DNA of 17,970 bases from a virus (taxonomy: Duplodnaviria; Heunggongvirae; Uroviricota; Caudoviricetes). Under the pieces are notes generated by a model that was not told where the DNA came from, did not search any database, and worked only from the letters and a program-made list of their open reading frames with translations. The position numbers were made by a program, and so were the translations under genes. How positions within the stretch are numbered: the first letter of the stretch is position 1; each line of letters starts with the position of its first letter. This document shows, piece by piece, positions 2,856 through 17,970 of the stretch. Location of the stretch: IMG/VR virus record IMGVR_UViG_2718218128_000004; one strand, 5' to 3'.

Positions 2856-3074
2856 TCAAAGAGAGAGCGCCACCTGTCCTGATTTCATTGGATGCGGCTG
2901 AACCGGATTTGACTCTTTTGGCGTTGCAATCGAACGAACAAAAGTTTCATGGGTAACAAAAGTATGGCTGCAGTTAATGTTCTGGCACTGGTTGTAACGC
3001 TCTTTGGTCAATGAAGATACCTGAAAACTGCTGCGAGTATGGGCGGCACTTCCACACAGTGGGCAAATCATCAT
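2856..3074 (-). CDS. ogr: Ogr/Delta-family zinc-finger late transcription activator
   Basis: 72-aa product from ATG at 3074 (MMICPLCGSAAHTRSSF...ERYNQCQNINCSHTF...) with the C-x2-C...C-x4-C zinc-binding pattern and clear similarity to P2 Ogr as I recall it; RBS GGGGAG about 10 nt upstream. The track ORF starts 11 codons earlier, which I consider less likely. Confidence 0.85.
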   Translation of the reverse strand: MMICPLCGSAAHTRSSFQVSSLTKERYNQCQNINCSHTFVTHETFVRSIATPKESNPVQPHPMKSGQVALSL

Positions 3075-3111
3075 TTTTCGAGTTCTCCCCATTTTTGCTA
3101 AATTCACAATA

Positions 3112-3274: not shown

Positions 3275-3814
3275 CTACTGTGAATGCGGGTCCGGTGCGG
3301 CAAGATGTTTTGCCATCTTATCATCCACGAACACCTTCAGCTCCAGTACCTTGTCATCCACATACTTGCGGGTTGCCAGCACGACGGCAGGGTCGATTTT
3401 CAGGGTGATATTGTCCGTGCTGCTGGTAATCAGCACCATGCGCACGGTCTGGGTGCGCCCGCTGCCTTCAGCCAGTTGCGGCTTATAGCTTTCCGGGCAG
3501 TTGCCTACGGCAATCAATGCCCCGGACTCATCAAACAGACCCACTTCACGTATCCACCAACCACCCTCATTTTCAGGGATCACCTGTTCAGCAATAATCT
3601 GGCTGCTGTTCTGCGGGTCGATATAGAGCATATTCAGCGCAGCCCGGCGTTTCTCATTTACCAGTGCCGTCTGCTTTGCGTCCGGCGTCGGCAATGCTCC
3701 GCCGCCATCGCCCACCGCCATATGGGTAATTTTTAGCGGCACACCGAGCGCGGCGGCGCTGGCAAGTTTCGCCGCGCCAATATCCGTCAGCAGGGTATAA
3801 AATTTTGTGCTCAT
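3275..3814 (-). pseudogene. H: Tail fibre protein H, N-terminal fragment (truncated)
   Basis: 179-aa ORF whose translation (MSTKFYTLLTDIGAAKLA...MAVGDGGG...ESYKPQLAEGSGRTQT...) resembles the N-terminus of the P2 H tail fibre (about 670 aa as I recall); the ORF stops at 3275 and the downstream genes G to D are absent. Confidence 0.75.
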
Positions 3815-4416
3815 GGATTCACTCTCATTGTGTCAATAACATGGACCGCCCCGCCTTCATGCGCGGTGCCGCCGGAAATAATTGTTTCGTTGATATACGG
3901 ATAGATCGTGATTTCTTCGCCAAGATAACTGGCGGCTCCCACCCAATGCGGACCGCTGGTCTGCAGATTGATGGACATGCCGATCATGTGACGGCTACAT
4001 GGTTTGGCATCGCTTATCAGTCGCTCAAGTTCCAGATAGGTATCTTCAGTGATGCCCTGGTCCTGCACACCAATGTCCAGACGAAACGTGCCCGGTGTTT
4101 CTCCGGTCTGCCACCACTCAATAATGCGGATCAGGAAGCCGAACGGCTCCACCACCCGCCGTACGGCACTGGTGGTTCCTTTGTGCTGATGAATATAAAA
4201 AGCATCCTTCACTACCTGGCGTTTGACGCTTTCTGTCCAGCCCTCGTCCCAGCGATCCACAGAGAACGCCCAGGCGAGATAAGGCAGGAAACTGACCGGA
4301 CAGGTTGCCGGATTCCACAAGTCACGCAGTGACACCTGCAGATCAGAAATCCCGCTACAGGTTTGCGCCAGTCGGCGCTCCAGTGGCGTGGAACCCGGTG
4401 GCAGCAGACTATTCAT
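3811..4416 (-). CDS. I: Baseplate assembly protein I
   Basis: 201-aa ORF (…LWNPATCPVSFLPYLAWAFSVDRWDEGW…GTFRLDIGVQ…) similar to P2 gpI; its stop overlaps the start of the H fragment (ATGA overlap at 3811-3814), as in intact P2-like tail operons. Confidence 0.85.
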   Translation of the reverse strand: MNSLLPPGSTPLERRLAQTCSGISDLQVSLRDLWNPATCPVSFLPYLAWAFSVDRWDEGWTESVKRQVVKDAFYIHQHKGTTSAVRRVVEPFGFLIRIIEWWQTGETPGTFRLDIGVQDQGITEDTYLELERLISDAKPCSRHMIGMSINLQTSGPHWVGAASYLGEEITIYPYINETIISGGTAHEGGAVHVIDTMRVNP

Positions 4417-4855
4417 CCGTTCCCCCGTTGGTCACGCTCCACTGAGTACATGATGCCGCCTGCGTTTTGTTCAGGACCACATCAGCCAGCGGTGAAGCCA
4501 GCTCCACACGTTGAACACCCTCAACATGCAGCGCGGCAAAAATAGCACTACGGCGAATATCCCGACCGAGCCGCGTCTGACTGGCGATGTACCTCTGCAG
4601 GCTGACTTTTGCCGCTGCCATTACCGGCTCTGCTTCCGGTCCCGGATAAAGAAAAATGGTAGCTTCCACACGGTACGGGATGATTTCTGCGCTGCGAACC
4701 GTCAGACGGTCAGCCACCGGGCGGACGTTCTCACTGTTCAGGGCTTTCTCCACCACATCCAGCAAGTCTTTTTCTGCTGTTCCGTCGCCTTCACGACTCA
4801 GGACAGTCAGTACCACCTCTGCAGGTGCCGGACTGGTTGCACTGGCATCCGCCAC
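4409..4855 (-). pseudogene. J: Baseplate assembly protein J, C-terminal fragment (N-terminal half missing)
   Basis: 148-aa ORF matching the C-terminal half of P2 gpJ (…VRPVADRLTV…LYPGPE…LGRDIRRSAIFAALHVEGVQRVELASPLADVVL…); P2 gpJ is about 300 aa as I recall, and the genes normally upstream (W, V, S, R ... O, P) are absent. Confidence 0.75.
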
Positions 4856-4964
4856 CCGACCGTCGGCGCTTCGGGCATGAAATTCATAAGCGGCAGTTGG
4901 CCCCGCAACAGAAAGCCCTTCAACCCAGCCGTATCAGTTCACGAAAGGCAGCATTTTTCATCTG

Positions 4965-5504
4965 ATGGAACCGGACATCAACCAGGAGATCTACGGCTTG
5001 CCCGGCTATCTTTCTGCCATTCCATCCGCCCTGCTCAACGAATCCGCCACGCTGTTCCGCCGTAAGTATTACATCAACGGCAGCCATGCAGGCTTCATCA
5101 TGTACATGACCGACGCCGCGCAGAATCAGGAGGATGTGAACAACCTCCGCAACGCGATGAAAAGCGCCAAAGGTCCAGGCAACTTCCGCAACCTGTTTAT
5201 GTACTCGCCTAACGGCAAAAAGGACGGGCTTCAGATCATTCCTCTGTCAGAAGTCGCGGCGAAGGATGAGTTTCTGAATATCAAAAATGTCAGTCGCGAT
5301 GACATGATGGCAGCACACCGCGTACCGCCGCAAATGATGGGGATTATGCCGAATAATGTTGGGGGTTTTGGGGATGTGGAGAAGGCGAGTCGAGTTTTTG
5401 TGCGAAATGAATTGAGGCCACTACAAAAGAGCCTATTAGAGCTGAACAACTGGTTAAAGGAGGATGTAATACATTTTGAGGATTATAACTTAGATATTCA
5501 ATAA
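4965..5504 (+). pseudogene. Q: Portal protein Q, C-terminal fragment
   Basis: 179-aa ORF similar to the C-terminal half of P2 portal gpQ (…KGPGNFRNLFMY…LQIIPLSEVAAKDEFLNIKNVSRDDMMAAHRVPPQMMGIMPNNVGGFGDVEKA…); opposite strand to the tail genes, as expected for the P2 Q-P operon; N-terminal half and gene P are missing. Confidence 0.75.
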
Positions 5505-5508
5505 TCTT

Positions 5509-5532
5509 AAAAACCTGCATATGCAGGTTTTT
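5509..5532. terminator. Bidirectional rho-independent terminator
   Basis: Perfect palindrome aaacctgcat/atgcaggttt (5511-5530) flanked by an A-run upstream and T-run downstream; sits between the convergent Q fragment (+) and the three-gene cassette (-). Confidence 0.5.
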
Positions 5533-5567
5533 ACATTATATAGTTATAAAACTAACAAAAATCATAT

Positions 5568-6233
5568 TCAAAGCTCTGAGTCTACAGGCTCATGATAAAG
5601 GTTTACAGGGTAGTGTATAACCTCATAATTAAGTTGACTAACAGTGTGAGTATGTTGACTGTAAAAAACCAATGGGTTTCTCTTACAAGGAGTTATCGAG
5701 ATAGACTTACAAGCATGAATTCTTGGAGCCGATTTATCTAAATGAGCCTTCCACTTAGTCATCATTTCATTACATTTTTTATTACGCGTATATATAATTA
5801 ACCCACCACTTGCACTGTCTACAGTACCAGTGCTATATCGCTCAGTGAGTTGTGCATACCCTTTAAATAAATAACTATATGAACCAGTGTGTTTTTTGGC
5901 CTCGCCATGCCAAGTAAATCTATTCAACTTTATTGTTATATCACAATGACCTCGTTGATTATTTTCATGATATGCTTCAATTCCCATATCTTTATTTTTT
6001 ATATTTGCCAGTAAAATTAAAGTAAGCTGATCTTCTGTTAAATCAAAATTCAATTTATTTGAATTTTCCTCAATTGCCTGTACAGCAGAATCAAGCTCAA
6101 TTCTTACAAACTGTTTGAAGTTCTCATACGACTGGAGAGCAAACCTAACGCGAGTAATAGAAGCATTGATACGCTGAAGAAAAATATCATTATCAATTTC
6201 AGCTAAACTCATTGGTGCAGACATTTTTAACAT
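5568..6233 (-). CDS. Hypothetical protein, gene 3 of AT-rich three-gene cassette (221 aa); possible PD-(D/E)xK-like nuclease motif
   Basis: ORF with ATG at 6233-6231 overlapping the stop codon of the upstream gene by 1 nt (TGATG); strongly AT-rich; no family recognised by eye; segment HCDITIKLNRFTWHGEAKK contains a D...ExK arrangement. Confidence 0.6.
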   Translation of the reverse strand: MLKMSAPMSLAEIDNDIFLQRINASITRVRFALQSYENFKQFVRIELDSAVQAIEENSNKLNFDLTEDQLTLILLANIKNKDMGIEAYHENNQRGHCDITIKLNRFTWHGEAKKHTGSYSYLFKGYAQLTERYSTGTVDSASGGLIIYTRNKKCNEMMTKWKAHLDKSAPRIHACKSISITPCKRNPLVFYSQHTHTVSQLNYEVIHYPVNLYHEPVDSEL

Positions 6234-6667
6234 CAGACAATATCCTTTAATTTAGATTCATCTAATGTAAAAAAAGGAAAGACGAAGGACTTATAGTCAT
6301 ACATAATCTCCCCTGTAAATGGGTTTACTAAAGATTGATTAATTTCAGCCTCTATAACATCTTCTAACTCAAGCTCAATAGGATCATGAAAATCATCAAT
6401 AAACCAATAATTGAGTTTTAAAAACTCAACCTTTGGACTACAAAGAATTTGTATAGCTGGGTACACAACCTGCTCATATGCTTCAGGTTGTATACATCCT
6501 TTATAACCATTAACGATACTAAATAAATCTTTATAACTCAGAGCTATATTAGGCGATTTCTTTGCTCTCACACCAATTTCATCATACAAATAGCAAGCTA
6601 GCGCCCCTATATCAGGGCGCTCTGCACATATTTCTTTGATGATCTGGGGCATATCACCATCCTTCAT
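6233..6667 (-). CDS. Hypothetical acidic protein, gene 2 of AT-rich three-gene cassette (144 aa from ATG 6667)
   Basis: ORF in the track begins at TTG 6679; I prefer ATG 6667, which has GGAG 6 nt upstream. Acidic C-terminal stretch (DDFHDPIELELEDVIEAEINQ). No family recognised. Confidence 0.6.
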   Translation of the reverse strand: MKDGDMPQIIKEICAERPDIGALACYLYDEIGVRAKKSPNIALSYKDLFSIVNGYKGCIQPEAYEQVVYPAIQILCSPKVEFLKLNYWFIDDFHDPIELELEDVIEAEINQSLVNPFTGEIMYDYKSFVFPFFTLDESKLKDIV

Positions 6668-6679
6668 TGCTGACTCCAA

Positions 6680-7786
6680 TTATAATATCAGCTTTGTGAG
6701 GGTTTCGAAATCATCTTTGGATATACATTTGCTTAATATAGCATAATTGACAGGAGAGCACCCACTACCACCTAAATGTCTGCGTAATGTTCCTGGAATG
6801 ATAAGCTCTACACTATCCGCCAATTGCAATTTTGGATTATTCCTATCTACTCTAATTCCAATACGATATAAACCAATATTACCTACAGCTTTAATGCCCT
6901 CTTTATTAAACAGATCATCACGCAAGTCTTTCTTAGCCACATTTTTCTTTTCCTTATGAGTGGTTCCCTCATAAGTTAAAAATGACAAATCGAACACCTT
7001 ATAACTTAAACTTGAATATGGCATTACATTTTGCTTGAAAATTGGCTCAATTAATGGATAAAAATCCTTTTCCGATGAATTAAATTGATAACCTGCGCAA
7101 TTATATAACTCACGAATAAAATTCGTTTTCGCAAAAACGATATTATCACCAACAACATTACCATTAGTATCAATTAATACATGGATTTTATTTGAAGCTG
7201 AATCTAATATACACACATCAAAACACTGACGTTTTTCTTTTCTCTTCGCAATGATTTCATCAAACTGTTTGTATGCTGCTAACTTTGACGGAGGGACTTT
7301 CTCTCTTACAACCAGCTCCCTGATAGATGAAAATACCAAAATAGACTGAGTATTTTGCTTAGAGTAATTAACAAGCTCAAGTTGATTTTTAATAGCATGC
7401 TGTAATTGAACATCATCAACAATCGTTTCGACTAATGATGTTGGTTGCTTCATCATATTCCATTGGCGAGCATATCTATCATCAAGTAATTTAATTACTT
7501 GACTATCTACAGACAAACTAAATATTGCTTTTTCACCATAAACAACCTGCCCAAAGACTAAATCATTTACACTTGCAATGATTTTGTCAAATTTTTGCCT
7601 ATCTTTCTTTTTAAAATCAATGAGGCTTTCTAGTATTTTGTCGTTTGTTGCTTCACGCCCTCTACCTGTAGGTAGCCCTAAAGAAGCAATAATTGGTCTG
7701 GCGATATGCCACGTAAAACGTTCAGTTAAGGCTAAGATCGACTTTAACTCAAAGTCAGAAAGCACCACTGGGACACCACTTGTCAT
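6680..7786 (-). CDS. Hypothetical protein, gene 1 of AT-rich three-gene cassette (368 aa from ATG 7786)
   Basis: Track ORF starts at GTG 7795; ATG 7786 has AGGTG 6 nt upstream. Stop codon directly abuts the gene 2 start region. No Walker A, HUH or other motif recognised by eye. Confidence 0.6.
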   Translation of the reverse strand: MTSGVPVVLSDFELKSILALTERFTWHIARPIIASLGLPTGRGREATNDKILESLIDFKKKDRQKFDKIIASVNDLVFGQVVYGEKAIFSLSVDSQVIKLLDDRYARQWNMMKQPTSLVETIVDDVQLQHAIKNQLELVNYSKQNTQSILVFSSIRELVVREKVPPSKLAAYKQFDEIIAKRKEKRQCFDVCILDSASNKIHVLIDTNGNVVGDNIVFAKTNFIRELYNCAGYQFNSSEKDFYPLIEPIFKQNVMPYSSLSYKVFDLSFLTYEGTTHKEKKNVAKKDLRDDLFNKEGIKAVGNIGLYRIGIRVDRNNPKLQLADSVELIIPGTLRRHLGGSGCSPVNYAILSKCISKDDFETLTKLIL

Positions 7787-7849
7787 AACATGCACCTAGT
7801 CAACCCAAAAGCAATTGAAAATCGCTCTTGTCTTAATTTTTTCCATCAA

Positions 7850-7877
7850 TATCTAACAAATTACCTTAATGTTGAAA
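7850..7877 (-). promoter_or_regulatory. Putative promoter of the three-gene cassette
   Basis: Minus strand: TTGCAA (7877-7872), 16-nt spacer, GGTAAT (7855-7850), about 60 nt upstream of ATG 7786. Weak -10; by-eye prediction in AT-rich DNA. Confidence 0.25.
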
Positions 7878-7936
7878 AAGTTTGCAAGCCATTTGCGTCT
7901 AAAAAGTGACTTGACTCAATGTGTTACAAAGCTTAG

Positions 7937-7955
7937 CGAGCGCGCGCTCGTATCC
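7937..7955 (-). other. cos-like sequence (possible cohesive-end site of the P2/186 family)
   Basis: Minus strand reads GGCGTGGCGGGGATACGAG; the first 13 nt match the 186/P2 cohesive-end sequence as I remember it (GGCGTGGCGGGGAAAGCAT for 186). Orientation agrees with the prophage orientation. Recalled from memory, not verified. Confidence 0.3.
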
Positions 7956-8007
7956 CCGCCACGCCTGCCCGCTTTATGGAGCGATTTTCATGCACCTGCA
8001 TGACATA

Positions 8008-8034
8008 AGCAAAAGCCCGCCAGTTCTGGCGGGC
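8008..8034 (-). terminator. Rho-independent terminator for the leftward SOS-regulated transcript
   Basis: Stem gcccgcc (8015-8021) / ggcgggc (8028-8034) with loop agttct; on the minus strand the hairpin is followed by a T-run (plus-strand A-run at 8011-8014); about 70 nt downstream of the 88-aa ORF. Confidence 0.45.
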
Positions 8035-8101
8035 CTCAGCGAAAACGATCCTCAAACGATCATGCGATCTCATGCAGCATAGACATGCACCCAGCCGGTT
8101 G

Positions 8102-8368
8102 TCAGAAAAGCGGCATTTGTGGGGTGTATCCAACGGGTAAAGACCGTCTGAGCTGCTCGCCCTCATAATCAATGATGAAGACCATCGCCTCACTACCTGA
8201 TACAGGATGATCGGAGCCAAACAAAAACACATCATCCATGGTTCTTCCCATCCAGTACTTGCCGCCATACTCTACACGACGCTGAAACAAAACCCATCCA
8301 CCAAGTTCGTCACGTTCAAGCGCCTGCCCCTCATAAACGGTCTGGAATTTGCTGTTGGATTTACCCAT
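8102..8368 (-). CDS. Hypothetical small protein (88 aa), second gene of LexA-controlled operon
   Basis: ATG 8368 preceded by GAGG 9 nt upstream; in-frame TAG upstream confirms it is a separate cistron from the preceding small gene. Function not recognised; position corresponds to the tum/SOS operon of phage 186. Confidence 0.6.
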   Translation of the reverse strand: MGKSNSKFQTVYEGQALERDELGGWVLFQRRVEYGGKYWMGRTMDDVFLFGSDHPVSGSEAMVFIIDYEGEQLRRSLPVGYTPQMPLF

Positions 8369-8446
8369 GGCTAACGCCTCGTTGTACTCGTTGTTTAACC
8401 TTGCTGACGTAAGAAGCTAGTTCTCACGCCAGCAACGTTCCTGCTG

Positions 8447-8635
8447 TTAACTGGGAAGATCCATTGAGCGGTTGTATTCATGAGCACGAATCTTTGCCAT
8501 CAGCTCATCCGTTAACTCAGAAACCCACTGGATAGCCAGTCGCTTCTCTTCATCATCACACTCACTAGCCGCCACAAGCTTGACAAAAAAATCAATGCGC
8601 TGGAGCTTCAACGACTCCAAAAAATAGTCTTGCAT
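8447..8635 (-). CDS. Hypothetical small protein (62 aa), first gene of LexA-controlled operon
   Basis: I place the start at ATG 8635 (strong AGGAGG 4 nt upstream) because the track ORF start at 8758 lies upstream of the promoter; product MQDYFLESLKLQRIDFF... Confidence 0.5.
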   Translation of the reverse strand: MQDYFLESLKLQRIDFFVKLVAASECDDEEKRLAIQWVSELTDELMAKIRAHEYNRSMDLPS

Positions 8636-8665
8636 CTTCCCTCCTATCACCAAACACACAGAAAG

Positions 8666-16917: not shown

Positions 16918-17970
16918 ATGGCAGTACGAAAACTCACCACCGGAAAATGGCTTTGCGAATGTTACCCCGCCGGACGTAGTGGGCGTCGTGTGCGTAAACA
17001 ATTCGCCACCAAAGGCGAAGCTCTGGCTTTTGAGCGTCACACGATGGACGAAACCGAAGCAAAGCCCTGGCTGGGTGAATCAGTGGATCGTCGAACACTG
17101 AAAGACGTGGTTGAGCTATGGTTCAAACTACATGGTAAATCTCTGACAGCTGGGCAGCATGTCTATGACAAATTGCTGTTGATGGTTGACGCTCTGGGCA
17201 ATCCCCTTGCAACCGATCTCACATCTAAAATGTTTGCCCACTATCGAGATAAACGCCTGACAGGTGAGATCTATTTCAGCGAGAAATGGAAAAAAGGAGC
17301 AAGCCCGGTCACTATTAACCTGGAGCAAAGCTATCTAAGTAGTGTTTTTAGCGAACTATCCCGCCTGGGCGAATGGTCGCATCCGAACCCACTGGAGAAC
17401 ATGCGAAAATTCACTATCGCAGAAAAAGAGATGGCATGGCTTACCCATGAGCAGATTGTTGAATTGCTGGCTGATTGCAAACGTCAGGACCCAATTCTGG
17501 CACTGGTAGTTAAGATATGCTTAAGCACAGGCGCACGCTGGCGTGAAGCCGTAAATCTTACCCGCTCACAGGTGACTAAATACCGAATTACCTTTGTCAG
17601 AACGAAGGGGAAGAAAAACAGAAGCATCCCTATCAGTAAAGAGCTTTACGAAGAGATCATGGCGCTTGATGGGTTCAATTTCTTTACAGACTGCTATTTT
17701 CAATTTTTATCCGTGATGGAAAAAACGTCTATCGTGCTCCCTCGCGGTCAACTGACACACGTTCTGCGCCATACGTTTGCGGCGCACTTCATGATGTCGG
17801 GTGGAAATATCCTGGCCTTACAAAAAATTCTCGGGCATCACGATATAAAAATGACTATGCGTTACGCACATCTGGCACCGGATCATCTGGAAACGGCGCT
17901 CCGTTTCAATCCTCTGGCAACGCTGCCAAGTGGCGACAAAGTGGCGGCAGCGGTTGGCATTACCCCGTAA
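16918..17970 (+). CDS. int: Tyrosine site-specific integrase (P2/186 family)
   Basis: 350-aa ORF with tyrosine recombinase signatures: conserved HVLRHTFA box, LGH motif and catalytic Tyr in MTMRYAHL; N-terminus (MAVRKLTTGKW...GRRVRKQFATKGEALAFE) typical of P2-family integrases; stop codon is at the window end. Confidence 0.9.
   Translation: MAVRKLTTGKWLCECYPAGRSGRRVRKQFATKGEALAFERHTMDETEAKPWLGESVDRRTLKDVVELWFKLHGKSLTAGQHVYDKLLLMVDALGNPLATDLTSKMFAHYRDKRLTGEIYFSEKWKKGASPVTINLEQSYLSSVFSELSRLGEWSHPNPLENMRKFTIAEKEMAWLTHEQIVELLADCKRQDPILALVVKICLSTGARWREAVNLTRSQVTKYRITFVRTKGKKNRSIPISKELYEEIMALDGFNFFTDCYFQFLSVMEKTSIVLPRGQLTHVLRHTFAAHFMMSGGNILALQKILGHHDIKMTMRYAHLAPDHLETALRFNPLATLPSGDKVAAAVGITP

Follow-up and report, generated by a model that had tools for sequence, protein, structure and literature searches.

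A 186/Fels-2-type cos site and a cargo slot on its Q side, occupied by a candidate defence cassette, in a deleted P2-like prophage

The IMG/VR virus record IMGVR_UViG_2718218128_000004, a stretch of 17,970 nucleotides (nt) that we refer to in its entirety as the window and whose positions are counted from its first letter, is a deleted 186/Fels-2-like prophage that lies in reversed orientation next to the host gene ybjL, with the part of the prophage beyond int falling outside the window. From its sequence, the segment at positions 7947-7965 can be assigned as the cohesive-end site (cos) of this P2/186-family prophage and is of the 186/Fels-2 type of the Peduoviridae. Between cos and the truncated portal gene Q lies a cassette of three genes with low G+C (GC) content, here called c1, c2 and c3, which is a candidate defence system. 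It is very probable, taken as a whole, that the window holds a 186/Fels-2-type cos with a cargo slot on its Q side and that the cassette in this slot is most likely an anti-phage system. Recognising cos fixes the anatomy of the prophage remnant and accounts for an otherwise odd low-GC island. The features at and around the site are as follows.

7947-7965 (read 7965 to 7947), minus strand: cos, the 19-nt cohesive-end sequence GGCGTGGCGGGGATACGAG, identical to that of Fels-2 and SEN8 and in register with those of P2, 186 and P4
7940-7946, unstranded: conserved GCGCGCG block directly after the 19-mer (+20 to +26), the last conserved bases before the variable cargo
7937-7950, unstranded: perfect 14-bp palindrome CGAGCGCGCGCTCG, made up of junction sequence (3 nt), the conserved 7-mer and the end of the 19-mer (4 nt)
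7966-8095, minus strand: conserved right-end flank of cos, presumed terminase-recognition side, with 90-94% identity to Fels-2, SopEPhi, RE2010 and Yersinia/Klebsiella P2-like phages
7988-8003: inverted repeat TCATGCAcctGCATGA, part of the right-end flank
8011-8034, minus strand: intrinsic-terminator-like hairpin GCCCGCCAGAACTGGCGGGC followed by TTTT, read by eye, which ends the DinI/tum-like operon

Read across the site, the minus strand consists of ...AAAGCGGGCA, then GGCGTGGCGGGGATACGAG, then CGCGCGC, then tcgctaag... The first 13 nt of the 19-mer (7953-7965; GGCGTGGCGGGGA on the minus strand, TCCCCGCCACGCC on the plus strand) had been noted in an initial annotation of this DNA as a match to the cohesive end of 186 and P2. 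As the annotated cohesive end of 186 is GGCGTGGCGGGGAAAGCAT, the match to 186 is indeed exact (13/13), while that to P2, which shares the annotated end GGCGAGGCGGGGAAAGCAC with P4, is 12/13 only; at positions 14-19 the window has TACGAG, the Fels-2/SEN8 variant, compared to AAGCAT in 186 and AAGCAC in P2 and P4. Fels-2 and Salmonella phage SEN8 have the window 19-mer over its full length (19/19). It opens the SEN8 record (nt 1-19, annotated 'putative cos site'), whose opposite end maps to window position 7966, from which we infer that the top-strand nick would fall between 7966 and 7965. A search tolerating up to three mismatches locates the 19-mer at this one place in the window, compared to 0.00 occurrences expected from 200 shuffles. 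A better cos candidate elsewhere, which the initial annotation named as the result that would speak against its proposal, was sought in the window and none was found; the next-best site for the 13-mer has two mismatches, which is at chance level, and offers no credible alternative. The segment thus presents the 19-nt cohesive end of the GGCGNGGCGGGG... type that marks a P2-family cos, as a single site in the window and in the position expected for this family, between the A/DinI side and the 3' end of Q, the gene order being Q'-cassette-cos-DinI-A. Both the 13-mer and the GC palindrome quoted in the initial annotation are present, about 10 nt away from where they had been placed: the palindrome occupies 7937-7950 rather than 7927-7940, and the 13-mer ends at 7965 rather than 7959.

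The flanks of the site were compared across eight cos regions anchored on the 19-mer (the window, P2, 186, P4, Fels-2, SEN8, a Serratia prophage and a Providencia P4-like element). This comparison, which includes the alignment to P2, P4 and 186 proposed in the initial annotation, brought the 19-mers into register and uncovered a shared upstream block and a shared downstream YGCGCGC. The conserved block extends from about -45 (ATGCAnnTGCAT, then AAAaCCg...AAAGCGGGCA) through the 19-mer to YGCGCGC at +20 to +26, so that the window site carries the conserved flanks of a P2-family cos; past +26 all eight regions are unrelated. P2, 186 and P4 (NC_001895, NC_001317 and NC_001609; 19-nt 5' cohesive ends) have the same upstream block ATGCAnnTGCAT...AAAGCGGGCA and the same YGCGCGC after the 19-mer as the window, and their likeness to it includes the place of cos between A and Q; the YGCGCGC motif is likewise found in Fels-2, SEN8 and the Serratia prophage. 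In Fels-2 and SEN8 (Felsduovirus) both the 19-mer and the following 7-mer are identical to those of the window, with a right-end flank that is about 90% identical, and within the Fels-2 group the conservation of this flank reaches to about -130. Over -120 to +26, 133 of 146 positions are identical between the window and Fels-2, which argues that the window cos region is undecayed. The inverted repeat TCATGCAcctGCATGA at 7988-8003 and repeated GCATG/CATGC motifs at about 8060-8090 are conserved in 186, P4 and the Fels-2 group and are candidate terminase-binding elements. The hairpin at 8011-8034 is the positional equivalent of the annotated t95b of 186; a stricter T-run terminator scan did not list it.

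The perfect GC palindrome that the initial annotation had set beside the cos-like sequence does exist, but as a separate feature it does not stand, only its GCGCGCG core being conserved. Its outer CGA (7937-7939) was seen, in the 75-locus survey described below, only in loci with the same cassette (L008 and L012), which leaves GCGCGCG (7940-7946) and the last 4 nt of the 19-mer as its conserved part. Statistically the palindrome is unremarkable: the window contains five perfect 14-bp palindromes, compared to a shuffle mean of 1.15. Considering its composition and the presence of five such palindromes, we count only the GCGCGCG block as a feature; the palindrome appears to be mostly a by-product of this block and the junction sequence, and the idea of a functional 14-bp palindrome, whose outer bases are cassette-specific and whose like recurs in the window, was dropped. 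The other four start at 5514, 9646, 16147 and 16229, one being the Q/c3 terminator and three lying in low-GC cargo genes.

The surroundings of cos in related prophages were surveyed in 80 IMG/VR loci encoding a close relative of the window Q fragment, 75 of which have a cos motif downstream of Q. The 19-mer is identical in 74 of these 75 loci and carries a single mismatch in the remaining one; it is followed by (G/A/C/T)(C/T/A)GCGCG and then, 7 nt past the 19-mer, by immediate divergence. In 11 of the 75 loci, 152-168 bp separate the Q stop from the first base of the cos 13-mer, as in P2 and 186, where the Q stop lies at nt 187 and 196 from the left end, respectively, so that the distance of about 100 bp given for P2 in the initial annotation was approximately right. 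In these 11 short loci the region from the Q stop to GCGCGCG measures 138-154 bp, has a GC content of 0.52-0.61 and is devoid of open reading frames (ORFs) of at least 70 amino acids (aa). The other 64 loci bear cargo, with 525-3535 bp of GC content 0.32-0.45 between the Q stop and cos. This cargo falls into 59 protein clusters, and of its 110 ORFs with 70 aa or more, 109 point from cos to Q. Checking whether related prophages carry different cargo, as had been suggested, therefore uncovered many cargoes at exactly the same position. The stretch between cos and Q is a cargo hotspot in the 186/Fels-2 lineage, and the layout of the window is ordinary for that lineage: the slot lies between gpA and gpQ, its content differs among otherwise syntenic phages, and it is set apart by a foreign base composition, by transcription from the strand opposite to Q, by a terminator hairpin and by a promoter that is putative only. 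What the initial annotation regarded as the unexpected side of cos is unexpected in comparison to P2 only. Its distinction from the old/tin locus was upheld, as the left-end (Q) side of cos holds the cassette here and the right-end (A) side holds old/tin in P2, between A/orf91 and cos, a position that the window cassette does not occupy.

The far boundary of the slot lies within Q. In the related loci, cargo of different types goes with different sequences in the last ~25 codons of Q and in the hairpin that follows the Q stop, each cargo type having its own hairpin, which places the Q-side breakpoint inside the 3' end of the gene and means that cargo swapping rewrites the end of an essential structural gene. 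The covariation of the portal C-terminal tail and the terminator hairpin (within 80 nt after the Q stop) with cargo type was seen across loci L008-L087. Breakpoints at cos and in Q fit homologous recombination between two anchors rather than insertion of a mobile element, and a search of 5505-7940 for recombinases, transposases and terminal repeats, inverted or direct, found none. With respect to content, 13 of 20 representative cargo proteins of the slot match PADLOC models, namely those for retrons I-A, I-C and II-A, AbiU, HEC-06, IetS, ShosA, PD-T7-1, PDC-M03A, PDC-S33, PDC-S49, a defence helicase and pAgo.

Much of this setting is already known. Rousset et al. (2022) defined the P2-like hotspot as everything from gpA to gpQ, 'adjacent to the cos site', without splitting the two sides (PMC9122126), and a 2026 study likewise treats gpA-gpQ without separating the sides of cos (PMC13586616). 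The window cassette falls inside this interval, resembles its variable, low-GC, defence-rich content, and is itself catalogued, its proteins WP_021580613, WP_021580614 and WP_021580615 being listed among the hotspot loci of Table S5 (PMC9122126). A long-standing precedent is the annotated genome of phiCTX, a Pseudomonas P2-like phage (NC_003278), in which ctx occupies the interval from cosL to the convergent Q and, like the window cassette, is read in the direction away from cos; ctx has its own promoter and terminators (as annotated). phiCTX differs in its 21-nt cos of another sequence, in the ~220 bp of annotated repeats after cos and in its cargo, a pore-forming toxin. Variable gene content beside cosL is also reported in a Ralstonia study (PMC5694545). 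Among the closest relatives by cos, Fels-2 carries STM2723.1 between cos and Q, and SEN8 a hypothetical protein and an HNH endonuclease, both different from the window cargo; in each, DinI and cos are also separated by a gene that has no counterpart at this place in the window.

A positional counterpart of the cassette is found in P4. Its hotspot genes gop-beta-cII directly follow the left end, with the same breakpoint after the 19-mer and YGCGCG(C) as in the window, and the six P4-derived clones of Rousset Table S2 all diverge right after YGCGCG(C). The far anchors differ, being the cII/int side in P4 and Q in the window. P2 old/tin and the old-tin and DprA-PRTase (APECO1) clones of Rousset et al. 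have a P2-type cos and lie on its A side, in contrast to the Q-side cassette of the window. By sequence comparison we thus take the position of the window cassette to be equivalent to the P4 hotspot and not to P2 old/tin. The Q-side slot begins at a fixed base, +27 from the left end, with the same boundary in P4-like satellites, and the published gpA-gpQ hotspot comprises at least two slots split by cos, of which the Q-side one is busy in the 186/Fels-2 lineage. The fixed +26 breakpoint, which P4-like satellites have as well, and the resolution of the gpA-gpQ hotspot into several slots are modestly new. We also observed a DprA/ShosA and phosphoribosyltransferase (PRTase) pair on the Q side of cos in a Fels-2-type phage (L083:10566-11540); the validated DprA-PRTase of E. 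coli APEC O1 (clone pFR105 in Rousset Table S2), by contrast, is found A-side of a P2-type cos, and either slot is thus open to this kind of system.

The cassette has a GC content of 0.34, compared to ~0.5 for the prophage backbone, and spans 5568-7786 on the minus strand, with expression signals on both sides.

6680-7786, minus strand: c1, 368 aa, RdgC/RexA-type fold, phrog_12777 (ATG at 7786, with an upstream in-frame GTG at 7795)
6233-6667, minus strand: c2, 144 aa, small acidic protein, phrog_11490
5568-6233, minus strand: c3, 221 aa, probable PD-(D/E)xK nuclease, phrog_9664
7787-7936, minus strand: non-coding cassette leader of 150 bp, with a putative promoter TTGCAA-18 nt-TAATTT and the Shine-Dalgarno sequence AGGTG, read from the sequence
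5509-5532, unstranded: perfect hairpin AAAAACCTGCATATGCAGGTTTTT, flanked by A5 and T5, between the Q stop (5502-5504) and the c3 stop (5568-5570)

All three proteins are 'hypothetical' in RefSeq and match only PHROG families without assigned function. The structure model of c1 (predicted local distance difference test, pLDDT, 86.5), a basic protein with an isoelectric point (pI) of 9.0, has E. coli RdgC as its top Foldseek match (2owl, E 4e-6, probability 1.0), followed by CENP-N and CENP-L, and c1 also matches phage RdgC-like proteins (E 2e-6). The RdgC-type fold family includes lambda RexA, the DNA-binding sensor of the Rex exclusion system (PMC11077077). The c1 model thus has its fold family in common with lambda RexA and bacterial RdgC, with sequence similarity between c1 and either protein being undetectable, and on the strength of the model we propose that c1 could be a DNA-binding component. 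Unlike the lambda Rex system, the cassette has no RexB-like membrane partner: c1-c3 have no transmembrane segments (no hydrophobic 19-residue window above 1.1), and with neither a multi-pass membrane protein nor a PADLOC Rex match the cassette is not a RexAB-type exclusion system. The acidic c2 (pI 4.4) lies between c1 and c3 in every locus examined. In c3, D98, E111 and K113 are invariant in 30 homologues, within GHCD-x12-EAKKH, and correspond to the D...(D/E)xK catalytic motif of PD-(D/E)xK nucleases, so that c3 is a probable nuclease of this type. With respect to the alpha-beta-beta-beta-alpha-beta core of restriction-endonuclease-like folds, its confident model (pLDDT 88) has the order helix-strand-strand-strand-helix-strand, the Foldseek matches of this model do not reach significance, and a profile search against solved structures gave no match. 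The hairpin at 5509-5532 looks like a bidirectional terminator for the convergent Q and c3 transcripts. The leader is conserved in L012, whose c1 is 84% identical in protein, and not in more distant cassette variants, across which an alignment of the leader brought out no conserved promoter. A consensus promoter and terminator scan found sites no more commonly than in shuffles and missed both hairpins, which were later read by eye, so that the cassette promoter is only putative.

The cassette is rare and largely confined to one bacterial order. In 5426 complete E. coli genomes, matches to the flank were found in 1287 and matches to the cassette in 20; all 20 carry it between Q and cos, 11 at ~99% and 9 at ~85% identity. 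An intact relative with this cos and this cassette is the prophage of E. coli muskdeer13-4 (L088; NZ_CP128596, 3.31-3.33 Mb). Homologues of the cassette proteins are few (38-40 clusters) and nearly all attributed to Enterobacterales. The three genes c1-c2-c3 form one collinear block in each of eight further loci, which come from Klebsiella, Plesiomonas, Rosenbergiella, Pantoea, Providencia, Citrobacter and Serratia (seven genera) and from a mis-binned contig of a metagenome-assembled genome. In five of these eight the cassette is convergent with Q, and cos is 170-190 bp upstream of c1 wherever the motif is recognisable, despite differing cos variants. A search of phage GenBank DNA with the cassette returned a single distant match, Klebsiella phage KP12 at 66% identity. 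Since a scan of the genome collection with a c3 profile gave only five loci, the taxonomic picture rests on few examples.

Some of these loci show the cassette in other company. In Providencia (L089) it lies in a P4-like satellite, between primase and psu and not beside cos; in Citrobacter (L090 and L091) it belongs to a chromosomal island, where its neighbours are a WYL regulator and a pyocin S/immunity pair; and in Serratia (L092) it is in another decayed P2-like prophage that also adjoins a ybjL homologue. A separate comparison concerned 'hp+hp+hp' (3HP) of Rousset et al., a system of three genes without annotated domains that comes from the same hotspot and protects against P1. The 3HP proteins measure 339, 357 and 226 aa and are unrelated in sequence to c1-c3, three test peptides from c1-c3 are absent from the supplements of that paper and the cassette has no PADLOC match, so that the cassette was rejected as a 3HP system.

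In order to rationalise the arrangement on the molecular level, we envisage the following mechanism. The P2-family terminase would recognise the conserved A-side flank of cos (7966 to ~8010 and beyond) and introduce staggered nicks that leave the 19-nt 5' overhang GGCGTGGCGGGGATACGAG, so that terminase cleavage would take place at 7947-7965. On the left-end side only seven further conserved bases, CGCGCGC, would be needed, and with so little required left of cos the stretch from cos+26 to the 3' end of Q would be free for accessory DNA. Homologous recombination anchored in cos on one side and in the last ~25 codons of Q on the other may exchange the cassettes, which would be transcribed away from cos from their own promoter, ending at the hairpin common to the convergent Q. 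Within the window cassette, c1 could act as a DNA-binding sensor that controls c3 as nuclease effector, with c2 as an acidic adaptor or inhibitor. The parts of this explanation do not stand on the same footing. The identity and uniqueness of cos, the breakpoints, the diversity and polarity of the cargo, the defence content of the neighbours and the co-linearity of c1-c2-c3 are direct observations. Cleavage at this site, the recombination mechanism, the promoter and any defence function are what we infer from them, and for the cassette being a defence system the chances are roughly even. The wider proposal, that c1-c2-c3 is an uncharacterised anti-phage system carried left of cos by P2-like phages across at least seven enterobacterial genera and that this slot is the phage counterpart of the P4 hotspot with the same breakpoint, is tentative, with the balance of probability somewhat against it in this full form. 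If it is true, phages and satellites would have a common docking point, 7 nt past the cohesive end, for swapping defence cassettes, and splitting the catalogued loci by cos side, among them the 18,150 gpA-gpQ loci of Rousset et al. and the 8165 P2-like prophages of the 2026 NAR study, would sharpen models of how such cassettes move between helpers and satellites.

Several observations weigh against the preferred explanation. Cutting at the window cos is a prediction, the cos annotation of SEN8 is itself marked 'putative', and the prophage is without terminase or capsid genes. The survey is biased, its loci having been picked at 88% or more identity to the window Q fragment and including near-duplicates. 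For the cassette, c1-c3 find no match in Pfam, PADLOC or NCBIfam, and single-sequence and profile searches of PDB sequences made no link to a solved structure; the TM-scores of the c1 fold matches are low (0.3-0.44), and the Foldseek matches of c3, mostly PD-(D/E)xK nucleases, are all non-significant (E of 0.01 or higher). The slot of phiCTX holds the toxin gene ctx and not a defence gene, and the cassette is not among the systems tested by Rousset et al. (PMC9122126).

The alternative with most to commend it accepts the site as cos and the slot as a cargo slot and takes the cassette to be something other than defence, that is, a conversion or virulence factor, an anti-defence or recombination-modulating module, or an addiction module. 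It would explain why c1-c3 match no defence model, and it agrees with the cytotoxin gene in the same slot of phiCTX, with the 7 of 20 neighbouring cargo proteins that have no PADLOC match and with the nearest fold relatives of c1, which are RdgC-type recombination proteins, bacterial and phage. RdgC inhibits RecA. P4-like satellites and WYL-regulator islands, on the other hand, are often linked to defence, and the cassette is found in both settings; most of the typed cargo of the slot is defence-related, and a predicted DNA-binding protein encoded together with a predicted nuclease on a prophage is a combination typical of defence. We regard a non-defence cassette as rather unlikely on this evidence. 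It is improbable that cos has been kept because the remnant of ~15.4 kb acts as a helper-dependent, satellite-like element that an incoming 186/Fels-2-type phage packages together with its cargo. Such an element would have the full-length regulatory, replication and integration ORFs, the deleted structural genes and the undamaged cos core (133/146 compared to Fels-2, with 19+7 nt identical) that the window displays, and two copies would amount to ~31 kb, near the 30.6-kb genome of 186; but a recent deletion without selection predicts the same picture, the J'/Q' deletion junction is present in 0 of the 5426 complete E. coli genomes and thus gives no sign of spread, and there is no Sid/Psu-like capsid-size gene.

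The remaining alternatives dispute the slot or the site itself. Placement of the cassette by a site-specific or transposable element targeting the GC palindrome beside cos would account for a perfect 14-bp palindrome exactly at the junction, and it is made highly improbable by the lack of recombinase, transposase and terminal repeats in 5505-7940, by the outer 3 nt, which are specific to this cassette while other cargoes abut GCGCGCG with unrelated sequence, and by the other junction inside Q, which moves with the cargo and points to homologous exchange. It is scarcely credible that the cos-like string arose by chance or has decayed, with the true cos located, now or formerly, at another place: in favour of this are the agreement with 186 at no more than 13 of 19 nt and the defective state of the prophage, but identity to Fels-2 and SEN8 extends over 19/19 nt with ~150 bp of conserved flank, no chance match is expected and no second candidate is found in the window, and the site is in the correct place between A/DinI and Q. 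We therefore retain the 186/Fels-2-type cos with its Q-side cargo slot, and with it the cassette as a candidate defence system.

With cos in place, the remainder of the window can be read as follows.

935-2620: ybjL, host gene (Escherichia-like)
2856-3107: ogr
3275-3814: tail-fibre gene H, N-terminal part
3811-4416: I
4409-4855: J, C-terminal part
4921-5504, plus strand: portal gene Q, 3' part encoding the C-terminal half (truncated; ORF 4965-5504), matching positions 142-277 of 321 of the Pfam Phage_portal profile
5568-7786, minus strand: the three low-GC cassette genes
8102-8758: DinI/Tum-like operon
8102-8368, minus strand: DinI/Tum-like gene on the A side of cos, called DinI in matching phages and E. 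coli prophages
8874-9703, plus strand: two small low-GC ORFs between A and the DinI operon, matching only PHROG families without assigned function
9775-12159, minus strand: replication gene A (GPA family; Pfam Phage_GPA, E 9e-127)
12156-13073: dam
14051-14814: cII and apl
14897-15841, plus strand: cI
15853-16830, plus strand: further low-GC gene
16918-17970: int

The prophage gene matches present (Pfam and other) are thus Ogr, H', I, J', Q', DinI, A, Dam, CII, CI and Int, and the orientation of the prophage follows from gene A at 9775-12159. Homology to intact Q genes can be followed from 4921 onwards and that to J up to 4923, an overlap of 2-3 bp at the junction (4921-4923), so that one deletion accounts for the missing portion of Q, for the absent terminase and capsid genes and for some of the missing tail genes; overall, the prophage is without its head genes and most of its tail genes. 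A search of the 5426 complete E. coli genomes for this J'/Q' junction did not find it. As the terminase and capsid genes are gone, the window cos would be functionless without a helper phage; the retained genes int, cI, apl, cII, A, dam and ogr, as well as cos itself, are intact. A second deletion cuts H after 179 codons, near ogr (junction at ~3275), and from ogr to int the remnant measures ~15.4 kb.

The cassette is not the only cargo of this prophage. The ORFs at 8874-9703 have a GC content of 0.33, compared to 0.54 for A, with which they are convergent, and the distance from cos to A is 1810 bp in the window compared to a minimum of ~792 bp in relatives; they are cargo on the A (old/tin) side of cos. 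They encode proteins of 124 and 152 aa, the second of which is hydrophobic, and a comparison with defence families gave a sole, insignificant match to RADAR RdrD (E 0.0017, 18 bits compared to a cut-off of 230). Upstream of int, the CI repressor (314 aa) has two tandem Phage_CI_repr helix-turn-helix domains (two Pfam stretches) ahead of its C-terminal domain, which looks like an internal duplication. The gene at 15853-16830 (phrog_2628, GC 0.35) encodes a protein of 325 aa with a coiled-coil-like N-terminal half and hydrophobic segments, and its place between cI and int constitutes a third cargo position of the prophage, which matches the minor 'integrase-primase' hotspot of PMC13586616.

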